Assembly (NCBI GenBank): GCA_951406725.2
Contig: OX597838.1
Location: 35,774,001-35,838,000 of the forward strand
Length of the DNA: 64,000 nt
Direction: 5' to 3'
From: Octopus vulgaris
Taxonomy: Eukaryota
In this document: positions 4,338 to 28,746 of the stretch, piece after piece
Numbering within the stretch: position 1 is the first letter of the stretch
Layout: every line of letters begins with the position of its first letter
Position numbers and translations under genes: made by a program
The notes under the pieces: generated by a model
What the model was told of the DNA's origin: nothing
The model's database searches: none
What the model saw: only the letters and a program-made list of their open reading frames with translations

Positions 4338-5616
4338 TGAGGGACGTTCAGTAAGTAATGTCCCTGACCCATTTGTAGTTGTTTGATCTTGCTGAAATTT
4401 TGCACGTGCAATTATCTATATCTCTATAGATTACGTGGCAAATTACAGCTCTAAACTAATTGTGGTTTTTGATTTACAGGTGTTTGAACTGAGTCAAGTG
4501 TGAAATGGAGCCTGTTGAGTGTCGAGCAGTGATCCAGGTTTTGTATTTGAAAGGACGCACACCACGGGAGACTTTTGATGAAATGAAAGTAACTTATGGT
4601 AATGATGCCCATTATATGACCTTGTAAAACGCTGGCATCGTGAATTCAAACATGGTCGGAACTCTGTGGAAACAGCCCCCAGATCTGGTCACCCTCCTTC
4701 TGCCATTGATGAGGCATCTGTCCGTCAAGTTGAGGCTGCCATTTTGGAAGATCGATGCATAACTATTCGCCAAATAGCCCATGAGGTCAAGATTAGTACC
4801 GAGTCTGTGGAAACTATCATTCATGACTATTTGCATATGCAAAGGTGTCTGCCAGATGGATTCCCATGTTACTCACACCTTTCCAGAAGCAAGAACGCGT
4901 CAAGTGCTCGAGGATGAATTTGGAGATGTGCCATGAAGATGAGTCAAAATTTTTCAAAAGACTGATTACACAGGATGAAACCTGTGTCCATCACCATGAT
5001 CCAGAGGTCAAAGCCCAGTCAATGCAGTGGAAACACCGTGACTCACCTCCTCCAAAGAAGGCAAGGGTGCAGCCCTCCACTGGCAAGGTCATGCTCACAG
5101 TCGTCTGGGACCAGGACGGAGTAGTGATGACAGATTTCCTGGCAAAGGGTACCATAATTACATGCTTCACTTTTGAGGAAATTAAGAGAAGCTATCAAAA
5201 TCAAGAGGCGGGGCAAGATCAGCAAAGGCATCCTCCTCCTGCAGGACAACGCTCCGGTCCACAACTCGATGGTCGCCAGATCAGAAGCACAGGCGTGCAG
5301 CTATGAACTCTTCCCCCAAACTCCTACTCTCCTGACCTTGCACCCTCGGATTTTCACCTCTTCCCACCCATGAAGTTGTTTTTGAAAGGAAAGCGTTTCC
5401 CAGATGATGCAGCCTTGATTTCTGAAGTCAGGTCGTGGTTGGAGGACCAAGCTGGGGTCTTCTACAAAAACGGTCTTTAGAGCTGCATCAAACGATGGGA
5501 GAAATGCGTAACTCTGGGTGGTTCCTATGTAAAAGAAGACTAATAACTGTGCCAAGTGTCGTTGCTCTACTGCTATGGGAAGTGGGTCAGGGGCATTACT
5601 TATTGAATGCCCCTCG
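4338..5616 (+). mobile_element. Full-length decayed mariner transposon (1279 bp)
   Basis: TA at both flanks; ~37-bp imperfect TIRs tgagggacgttcagtaagtaatgtccctgaccc / gggtcaggggcattacttattgaatgcccctcg. Confidence 0.93.
4505..5543 (+). pseudogene. Frameshifted mariner transposase
   Basis: Motifs spread over several frames: WIPMLL, ITQDET, LLQDNAPVH, YSPDLAPSDFHLF (mariner DDD triad motifs). Confidence 0.92.
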
Positions 5617-5957
5617 TATTATAGTTGATTTGATTGTTTAGCATCATGTGTAGCGTTTTTACTAGTACTTGTTTACAGGGGTCCTGAAGCAATTTAACAG
5701 GATAACCCATTTCTGCAAGATTCAATCTGGGGTGGGTGGGGGTGGAATGGTAATTGGGTTAAGATAATTGCTTTGAGACCATGTGGTTTTGAGTTCAGTC
5801 CCACTGCTCTGCTCCTTGGACAAATGTCTTCTACAATGGCCTTGGGCCAACTAATGCCTTGAGAGTGAATCTGGTTGACAGAAACTGTATGGAACCCTGT
5901 TGTGTGTATGTATGTGTGTGTGTGTGTGTGTATGTATATATGTATATATATGTATTG

Positions 5958-8440: not shown

Positions 8441-9060
8441 TCATATATATATGATATACCATATATATATGATATACCATATATATATATGATATACCAT
8501 ATATATGATATACCATATATATATGATATACCTTATATATATATGATATACCATATATATATGATATACTATATATATATGATATACCTTACATATATAT
8601 GATATACCATATATATATGATATACCATATATATGATATACCATATATATGATATACCATATATATATGATATACCATATATATATGATATACCATATAT
8701 ATACGATATACCATATATATATATGATATACCATATATATATATATGATATACCATTCAAATTGCAGCTGGATAGATACTTAAGCACCATTAGAGATGAA
8801 CCCCATCTCCCAGGGTATACACAACGAGCACAAACTGACTCAAACTCGCTCCTACACATGTCAAAATTAAACAGAGAATACAACCTGGCAACCACACCAG
8901 ACTCTGAGGGTGGAGTCTTCGACTTGGCCTGAGCATGGACTCAAACTCAAATGAAATGAAATGAAATACCATATATATGTATGATATACCATATATATAT
9001 ATGATATACCATATATATATATGATATACCATATATATATATGATATACCATATATATAT
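8441..9060. repeat. (ATAT..GATATACC)n minisatellite interrupted by a LINE fragment
   Basis: Over 20 units of 14-22 bp. Confidence 0.9.
8753..8966 (+). mobile_element. 5'-truncated LINE (CR1/Jockey-group-like C-terminus) inside a minisatellite
   Basis: FKLQLDRYLSTIRDEPHLPGY..SNSLL; (AAATG)n tail. Confidence 0.7.
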
Positions 9061-15634: not shown

Positions 15635-15966
15635 ATGTTCGATGGTGTTAGCATATCCCCACCAACGAGTGGTGGCACGGCGGTGCCTCTCAACGGCTAC
15701 TTAACCAAAAATCTGTCCATGGCTCAAAGATACCAGGAGGCAACAGCGGCCCAGCCACCGCCGCCGCCGCCGCCGCCCCCACCGCCACCCCCGCCGCTGC
15801 CCCCGTCGTCGATGATTGCTTACAATAAGTCTAAAGAGGAAGTGAAAGTCTCTTCCGAACCACCAGTTTCCGTCAAAATTTCAAATTACGAAATTCTCGA
15901 TCATGAGCGGAAACGGAAAGTGGAACTTAAGTGCATGGAAATGCAAGAGTTGTTTGAAGAGAAAGG
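15635..15966 (+). CDS. First coding exon of an SRRM2/3/4-family (Cwc21/cwf21 domain) splicing factor; partial CDS ending at a phase-2 intron
   Basis: MFDGVSISPPTSGGTAVPLNGYLTKNLS...EILDHERKRKVELKCMEMQELFEEKG matches the cwf21 signature (SRRM2 ILDHERKRRVELRCLELEEMMEEQG, from memory). Acceptor (CT)n..ctaatttcAG ends at 15608, ATG is at 15635, donor GG|GTAAGT is at 15967. Confidence 0.9.
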
Positions 15967-15983
15967 GTAAGTTATATTTGATT

Positions 15984-27329: not shown

Positions 27330-27956
27330 CATACAGTATATATATATATATATTTATATATGTATATAATACATATAGTATATACATATATATATATATA
27401 TATATATACATATATATGATACATATATATATATATATATATATATATGATACATATAGTATATATACATATATATATATATGTATATATGATACATATA
27501 GTGTATATATACATATATATATATATATGTATATATGATACATATAGTGTATATATACATATATATATATATATGATACATATAGTATATACATATATAT
27601 ATACACACATACACACAAAATTTTTTCTTTCAGTTTTCTTTTCTTTTGTTTACTGCTTATTTTTTTGTTTTACTTTATATATTTTTTCCTTTTGTTTCAT
27701 TTTTCTCTTTTGTTTTGTTTTAATTTTGTTTTTCACTCTACATATTATTTTTCTTTTTTTCATATTTGTTTTTTTTTTTTTTTTTCTATTTTCCTGAGTT
27801 TTTCAGACCCAATTTATTTTCTTATGTATTTCTTCAATGCTGAACTGACACATAGGGTAAGAATAAATAACAAGTTGTTATGGAAAGGCAAAGGTCGATA
27901 GGAAAAAAAGAAAACAAACAAACAAACAAACTATATATGGCTTATTTAAGATATAT

Positions 27957-28133: not shown

Positions 28134-28180
<47 letters not shown>

Positions 28181-28238
28181 TATATAAGTGTAGGAAGAAA
28201 TGGAGCTGAACGAAGATTTAACAAAATTTCTTTTTATT

Positions 28239-28324
28239 ATTTTCTACATATGTTTCGAAGGCTGCAAAGTCCCTAATTCGGATTGAATAAGGAGTCCATT
28301 TTGCAGCCTTCTCTTCAGGAAAAT
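28239..28324 (-). ncRNA. Type I hammerhead ribozyme with intact core, in a probable Penelope-like remnant
   Basis: Minus strand: ATTTTC-CTGAAGA-GAAGGCTGCAAA..TTTGCAGCCTTC-GAA-ACATATGT-A-GAAAAT. 6-bp stem I, 12-bp stem II, palindromic stem III, GUA cleavage triplet. Confidence 0.8.
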
Positions 28325-28418
28325 CCAGGAACTTAATTCTCCAACAAAATGCACAGCAAGCTTTTCGACAAACGCTCACGAGGAGCCCATGAAATAAATG
28401 GCACAAACTGTCTATCTA

Positions 28419-28459
<41 letters not shown>

Positions 28460-28464
28460 GTATA

Positions 28465-28741
28465 CAGTAGTGGACTGGCCAGGTTGCCAGCTTGCCCAAA
28501 GGCAAGTGGGCCCCTGCCCCTTTAGAACTCGTGTTAGTATCTAAGGGGCCCATCCCCTCAAGTTTGAGAATTTTTTATTCACCCCTGGAAGAATGCATTA
28601 ATTATTTTAGCCTGGGTGTGTTTGTAGACAGTGGAAAAGAATACTTATAACAAGCAAAAAAAAAAAATTAAATGATAACATTGTAGTTGTGGGTGAACCC
28701 CCTTAGTCTCCTGGCAACCAATATTTTTAGACCCAGTCTGC

Positions 28742-28746
<5 letters not shown>
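28465..28746. mobile_element. Probable hAT-like MITE within (TA)n
   Basis: Ends cagtagtggactgg / ccagtctgccacta (imperfect TIR). Confidence 0.55.

Follow-up and report, generated by a model that had tools for sequence, protein, structure and literature searches.

Penelope-like elements (PLEs) of the Hydra clade are the closest described relatives of the octopus locus reported here. According to the passages that define it, the clade is recognized by the motifs RWK and DKT, the lack of a CCHH finger, a CxCX5C linker, and CxxC and CxH motifs around E and N (PMC8557442). Its members also have (TA)n targets and canonical hammerheads, and the supplement to the same work includes Hydra-1_Obim from Octopus bimaculoides with a different hammerhead of its own; hammerheads of this clade, an octopus one among them, are already in print (PMC8557442). 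Metazoan PLE hammerheads have been found inactive as monomers and weak as dimers in published tests. For the Anolis element, the relevant sections describe a hammerhead that depends on the element's protein, as well as two internal sites at which reverse transcription starts (PMC11167929), and in Penelope elements of rotifers one arm of inverted copies is described as bearing an optional tail (PMC3846280). The table of an octopus repeat annotation contains 31 Penelope-like families, with no mention of ribozymes in the passages concerned, and the repeat library of that study may contain the family described below (PMC13282606).

Here we analyze a hammerhead motif in a 64-kb stretch of the Octopus vulgaris genome (the window). 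We interpret it as the resident hammerhead of a young Hydra-clade PLE, present in a truncated copy of ~240 bases; the ribozyme would cut within the sense RNA of the element with the aid of a helper, and the lone copy would be an inert passenger. We assign this interpretation a probability of roughly 0.88.

Sequence and parts of the hammerhead motif

The minus strand at positions 28324-28239 reads as a type I hammerhead, with the core elements CUGANGA, GAAA and NUH in this order, three helices, and its ends in stem I (Table 1). The preliminary description of this DNA had proposed a canonical core (CUGAAGA, GAAA, GUA), a 6-bp stem I, a 12-bp stem II closing a long insert, a palindromic stem III, and a cut between 28245 and 28244 of the minus-strand RNA. 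The core can be read directly on that strand, the stems agree with the sequence, and the position of the cut is correct. Watson-Crick pairing is complete in both stem I (6/6) and stem II (12/12). The palindrome ACATATGT occupies minus-strand positions 28253-28246 and is followed by A17 at 28245. The predicted cleavage after GUA, an instance of NUH, conforms to the hammerhead consensus.

Table 1. Features of the window discussed in the text, in order of position
Feature	Position	Strand	Basis
Exon with the first half of a cwf21 domain and a GT donor at its end, from an Srrm2/3/4-like gene (probable host gene)	15635-15968	+	Pfam PF08312
(TA)n target repeat at the 3' end of the element	28137-28186		sequence
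5'-truncated 3' end of a Hydra-clade Penelope-like element	28177-28417	-	242 bases aligned with a long copy's 3' end at 97.5% identity
Stem I, 3' arm (GAAAAT)	28239-28244	-	sequence, pair counts
Predicted cleavage site 28245/28244, after GUA (GUC in one subfamily)	28244-28245	-	hammerhead consensus
GAAA core (28256-28253) and palindromic stem III ACAUAUGU (28253-28246)	28246-28256	-	sequence
Stem II, 3' arm	28257-28268	-	sequence, pair counts, folding
Insert of 31 nt closing stem II, variable among subfamilies	28269-28299	-	folding (predicted internal loop and distal hairpin)
Stem II, 5' arm (12 bp)	28300-28311	-	sequence, pair counts, folding
Catalytic core CUGAAGA (CTGAAGA in DNA)	28312-28318	-	sequence
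Stem I, 5' arm (ATTTTC)	28319-28324	-	sequence, pair counts
(TA)n repeat at the truncated 5' end	28413-28464		sequence

When the 64-kb window was scanned with a structural descriptor, the motif at 28239-28324 was the single match. Among dinucleotide shuffles, 3 of 200 matched the relaxed descriptor and 0 of 200 the strict one, and the folding z-score of the motif is -3.1 to -3.2. An Infernal search had been proposed as a check, and here the outcome was negative: Rfam hammerhead models did not match the motif at the gathering score, and none of the 24 Rfam matches at E<=10 is a hammerhead. This miss is likely a consequence of the long stem II insert, and a match to an Rfam model is not part of the biochemical definition of a hammerhead. 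The missing match is nevertheless the kind of result that favors a chance look-alike. The probability of such a look-alike is negligible given the strict descriptor's failure to match any shuffle and the location of the hammerhead, with covariation, at a position common to every subfamily of the element.

The copy as a truncated transposon end

The motif belongs to a block whose unique part spans 28187-28412 (226 bp) and whose borders on both sides merge into TA repeats; the preliminary description had given (TA)n as its bounds. That description had also treated the ~220-bp block as a unit, a view that does not hold because the block is a 5'-truncated end and the 5' ends of its copies are scattered. 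The copy is a lone one of the class with short 3' ends and matches just the last 242 bases before that short end; neither a partner arm nor a second hammerhead was found for it within the 64-kb window.

A first-look search of the genome (2.8 Gb, 227 contigs) returned 1506 candidates for the 226-bp block and 2675 for a sister subfamily, which are counts of candidates and not copy numbers; the 40 block candidates that were scored are 97-100% identical. An exact 33-mer located just 3' of the cut is found in at least 414 copies, 208 in forward and 206 in reverse orientation, with 0 matches for the control. The expectation of a repeated sequence, raised earlier as a matter of copy count, is borne out by these numbers.

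Other mobile sequences were observed in the window. A MITE-like element of ~280 bp (28465-28746) with imperfect terminal inverted repeats (TAGTGG...CCACTA) adjoins the copy and lies between TA repeats, and a fragment of a Mariner-type transposase (PF01359) is found at 4606-5618. Elsewhere in the genome, five copies on four contigs (L176, L192, L193, L196 and L202, with flanks L210-L214) have a common 5' end and share up to 2 kb of upstream sequence, as passengers in another mobile unit.

The autonomous element and its clade

Other copies continue in the 5' direction, on the strand of the hammerhead, into a 3' UTR and an ORF for reverse transcriptase (RT) with a C-terminal GIY-YIG domain, and an uninterrupted 900-aa frame of the family is found at L069:4474-7173. 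Linkage to a PLE RT/GIY-YIG ORF had been suggested as a test of the motif's origin; together with copy number and covariation, it agrees with the earlier assignment to the type I hammerheads with palindromic stem III known from Penelope-like elements. In tandem copies (L065, L062) the hammerhead region is followed by a tail of ~150 bp, a further ~50 bp and the ATG of the next ORF, which is the partial-tandem pseudo-LTR (pLTR) layout known from Penelope-like elements, with the hammerhead sense to the ORF. The core is located 583 nt after the stop codon, and the cut in tandem copies is 263 nt before the next ATG. In one sister copy an ORF is flanked by two hammerheads at a distance of 3677 bp. 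A ~68-nt GT..AG stretch in the 5' UTR/tail (L065:5337-5405, minus strand) resembles the 5' intron of Penelope; no spliced joint for it was found in contigs from 4 runs, a kind of data that cannot show absence.

Pfam named no domain in the 900-aa ORF, and searches of PDB sequences gave no significant match. The ORF does carry YRDD and GIY-YIG-like motifs. RVT_1 is present in 16-48% of the members of its Atlas neighbors, GIY-YIG was detected in the homologue P0062 with an E-value of 8e-4 (below the cut-off), and the homologue P0135 is named GIY-YIG by its source. We found 262 homologues, and among the 120 listed, YRDD is present in 120, DKT in 108, RW[KR] in 97 and CxCX5C in 95; Argonauta is the sole named animal source among those listed.

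Assignment to the Hydra clade is based on motifs. The ORF contains DKT (for DKG) at position 122, CALCNSE at 860 (CxxC before E) and CTH at 888 (CxH after N); it has a single C within the GIY-YIG core and no CCHH finger. In the N-terminal RWK column it has RWL, where homologues have RWK or RWR. The CxCX5C linker of Hydra elements is absent in this family and an Asn/Ser-rich stretch is found in its place. We read the missing linker as a lineage-specific loss and, pending a tree, place the family within the Hydra-like group as a relative without the linker. Nematis, considered first, was dropped on motifs, as the ORF has neither the CCHH finger nor the DKG of the Nematis, Neptune and Penelope-Poseidon clades.

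Nearly all 3' ends of the family adjoin (TA)n. That a family with no CxCX5C finger targets (TA)n is hard to reconcile with the proposed role of the linker in targeting. Another Hydra-like family (L037:5943-6929) has kept CxCX5C, and a candidate type I hammerhead (8442-8532) is found 1.5 kb after its stop codon. Both this hammerhead and another type I hammerhead at L093:2248-2338 also have a long stem II insert; the link to the ORF is putative. The 3' part of a different Penelope-like ORF, with a zinc-finger linker and GIY-YIG, was seen in a TA repeat beside a copy (L040:4170-5114, minus strand).

Comparison with described elements

In the features covered by the Hydra-clade report, the family resembles that clade in its single ORF with RT and C-terminal GIY-YIG, DKT, CxxC and CxH around E and N, absence of CCHH, (TA)n insertion, a sense type I hammerhead near the 3' end, and inverted 5'-truncated copies (PMC8557442). 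It differs in that its hammerhead sequence is unlike the one listed for Hydra-1_oBim, its stem II has 12 bp and a 31-nt insert (3-7 bp and loops of 3-10 nt in the Hydra rows of the table), its stem III palindrome is even and perfect, its linker is replaced and RWK is RWL, and its length is ~3.6 kb as compared with "generally <3 kb" (PMC8557442).

The PLE hammerheads with a small palindromic helix III described by Cervera and de la Pena (2014, PMC4209133) are, in the parts of that paper concerned, likewise of type I, located in pLTRs and enlarged in helix II. They share the palindromic 15.2-16.2/loop 3 region, occur mostly as single motifs in truncated copies, and are expected to have low or no activity as monomers. 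Helix II of the octopus family is longer than the 7-8 bp given there, and it has no extra base between A9 and G10.1. The window motif is not "minimal" by comparison with that description, since a 2-bp helix III with a tetraloop is present.

Sections on the Poseidon element PAc of Anolis (Frangieh et al. 2024, PMC11167929) and on rotifer Penelopes (PMC3846280) describe two classes of 3' end attributed to two internal RT start sites, a tail on one inverted arm, AT-rich targets, and an Asn-rich insert between RT and endonuclease, all of which have counterparts in the octopus family. The tail in these elements of another clade is 30-40 bp, while that of the octopus family is ~150 bp and wholly non-coding, and the hammerhead overlaps the ATG in PAc and rotifer elements but is 263 nt upstream of it here (PMC11167929, PMC3846280).

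Metazoan non-LTR retrozymes resemble the locus in their type I hammerhead, small unit and PLE kinship (PMC7229834; bioRxiv 10.64898/2026.07.22.740005). If the block were such a retrozyme, it would be a non-autonomous unit of ~220 bp processed to small circles. The block does fall within the 150-450 bp range given in the retrozyme passages and has a type I hammerhead (PMC7229834), and a descent of retrozymes from pLTRs has been proposed (bioRxiv 2026.07.22.740005). However, the 175 loci with a whole hammerhead include no array of 3 or more units, and their neighbor pairs comprise 27 inverted and 6 direct ones at 390-3677 bp. In addition, the 5' ends are scattered and not fixed, and the block is colinear with 3' UTR sequence belonging to an autonomous ORF. 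The absence of short tandem arrays among these loci speaks against the retrozyme option of the preliminary description, which we consider highly improbable.

Our literature search on hammerheads and Penelope elements, on octopus, and on tails, inverted copies and twin priming, with Repbase and Dfam outside its scope, found this kind of element well described and did not find this family or the one-short-one-long count reported below.

Conservation and covariation across copies

In order to assess conservation, we used 145 of 155 profile matches that span the motif and represent ~115 distinct copies, a sample enriched for young copies. The whole core is intact in 106 of the 115. None of the 11 core positions (0 of 11) has an alternative base in at least 3 copies, as compared with 13 of the 24 stem II positions, 13 of the 31 insert positions and 6 of the 12 stem I positions, and position 17 is occupied by A or C only, both of them allowed bases. 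The core is fixed across subfamilies down to ~76% identity.

The covariation set consisted of 53 distinct sequences free of gaps, after 5 rows with gaps and a further one with an insertion had been set aside. Paired cells make up 93.0% in this set, as compared with 86.9% in shuffles and 32-50% in slid controls. Stem covariation among genomic copies, a point raised by the preliminary description, is present as two-sided changes that affect 4 of the 12 pairs in stem II, 1 of the 6 in stem I and the centre of the palindrome (UA 33, UG 11, CG 9), although the events are few and come from about four subfamilies. The number of pairs with two-sided changes was reached by 478 of 500 shuffles, and RNAalifold recovers just 4 pairs, all in stem II. 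In several subfamilies the predicted fold is no more stable than that of shuffles (z 0.05 to -0.9), and stem I is degraded in some. The fixed core and the compensating changes in stem II and the palindrome make it likely that the element is under selection for a ribozyme; the ribozyme so maintained would be that of the element and not that of the window copy. A more distant subfamily (L147:2265-2352) has a CUGAUGA core, a GUC site and a 9-bp distal hairpin and also occurs as an inverted pair; in it the core is kept and further compensating stem changes are found.

Folding and the question of activity

Folding of the isolated motif places the hammerhead at -23.3 kcal/mol and the minimum at -24.8 kcal/mol, a cost of 1.5 kcal/mol. 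In ensemble folding stem II alone forms, and within the 226-nt block the probability is 0.0 for stem I and 0.18 for monomeric stem III. Stem I has a predicted probability of at most 0.06 in context in all 10 family representatives, in line with the published dependence on a dimer or on protein. A duplex between the palindromes of two copies is computed to have 8 bp and -7.0 kcal/mol. Two other arrangements were considered and rejected: a downstream "anti-core" switch, in which CUGAA would pair with UUCAG, has a probability of at most 0.07 in the representatives that could be scored, and a second, rewired hammerhead in the 3' UTR is contradicted by the single CUGANGA found on searching both strands.

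A stem I that is weak, degraded in some subfamilies and unpredicted is also what a non-cutting relic would show, or a structural signal kept for another reason, for example as a protein-binding hairpin near the RT start site. This alternative concerns activity, not family membership. The 5' ends of copies, described below, have no pile-up at the cut, and in the passages on the Anolis element insertion proceeded in vitro without cleavage and no reads ended at the cut (PMC11167929). On the other hand, the 11 of 11 fixed core positions, the limits at position 17 and the covarying palindrome centre are what selection on catalysis and dimer pairing predicts. We therefore regard a relic or structural signal as unlikely, and continue with a resident hammerhead that would cut with a helper.

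End structure of insertions

The 3' ends that we examined (n=71) comprise 31 short, 40 long and 0 other ends, and 6 of the long ones continue into the ORF. All 40 of 40 inverted pairs are composed of one short arm and one long arm (22 and 18 by order). The long arm in these pairs (e.g. L036, L157-L168) extends ~150 bp beyond the short site, and in no pair are the arms alike. The tail is 4-5 times the published length, and the two 3'-end classes with the 40/40 rule match the published tail and two RT start sites.

The 5' ends were evaluated for 96 copies out of the first 100 in a list of 414, and they are scattered. Five of the 96 begin no more than 7 nt from the cut, where 2.2 would be expected (P=0.07), and 1 begins exactly at the cut; 5 of the 96 copies in this count are passengers of one composite repeat. 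A search for a genomic footprint of cleavage returned 5 TATATA-GAAAAT matches, all of them point mutants. As 5' ends are not clearly enriched at the cut, cleaved RNA is not visibly a favored template, as in Anolis.

The most likely working of the hammerhead is a helper-dependent trimming of tandem precursor RNA. This proposal is drawn from published Penelope biochemistry and from the anatomy observed here (sequence, family, ORF linkage, copy number, end structure and covariation). Transcription of a tandem copy would begin in the upstream pseudo-LTR, traverse the ORF and enter the next pseudo-LTR. The hammerhead may then trim the tandem precursor to unit-length RNA, once two palindromic stems III have paired or the protein of the element has refolded the RNA. 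The RT-endonuclease would nick (TA)n and start reverse transcription internally, either about 60-67 nt or about 215 nt 3' of the cut, and early termination would give rise to scattered 5' ends, that of the window copy among them.

We also advance a more specific proposal, which is tentative and on balance doubtful. One dimeric RT-endonuclease might prime both nicked strands on one RNA, using each start site once; the long-stem-II hammerhead, ~60 nt upstream of the first site, might be unable to fold by itself and become active only within this complex; and (TA)n targeting might operate without a linker finger. A young family whose ORF is uninterrupted would open these three points to testing, in a clade not known to have been examined experimentally.

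The probable host gene

The cwf21 exon in the window is diverged and scores 33.4 bits against PF08312 (cut-off 23.2), and an SRRM_C exon is found on the same strand 1.5 Mb downstream (G000:C25:37317492). A separate, intron-free cwf21 match is located on another contig (G000:C27:11415). Taken together, these matches possibly represent two Srrm2/3/4 paralogues, one of them a very long gene, with a possible parallel in vertebrate SRRM2 versus SRRM3/4. No second host exon was found within the 64-kb window by tblastn or profile scan. A 50-nt candidate exon at 27807-27856 (plus strand) has good splice sites and one open frame and is without homology support.

The cwf21 exon upstream and the SRRM_C exon downstream, on the same strand, may be parts of one transcript, and the copy would then probably sit, in opposite orientation, within an intron of a very long Srrm2/3/4-like gene. 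The motif had been described as antisense to the host gene. The opposite-strand placement is plausible on this inference, but a special meaning is not, as the plus strand of the 28187-28412 block has no hammerhead core and copies are almost evenly divided between strands in the 33-mer count. A plus-strand transcript of the host would consequently carry just the inactive complement.

These findings bear on the possibility that the ribozyme was co-opted to regulate the Srrm2/3/4-like gene, through antisense transcription and self-cleavage within the intron. Besides the probable intronic location on the opposite strand, points in its favor are the copy's perfect core and its canonical G10.1-C11.1 pair, which is the rarer form in the family (G-U in 60 and G-C in 51 of 115 copies). 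However, the window copy shares 99.6% identity with a copy from another chromosome, so that its perfection reflects its youth, and its hammerhead is letter-identical in other copies. Its 5' end falls within the commonest truncation zone (50 nt), where 24 of 59 copies at risk end, and the missing partner and coreless plus strand also argue against a regulatory role. Co-option is accordingly very unlikely, and the lone antisense copy is probably without activity.

This copy is one of hundreds of truncated transposon ends in the genome and is probably of no consequence for the host gene. The family has a modest usefulness to specialists as a young element of the Hydra type whose ORF is uninterrupted, with a long-stem hammerhead missed by Rfam and a 150-bp tail, and its one-short-one-long rule supports the two-start-site model of Penelope retrotransposition.
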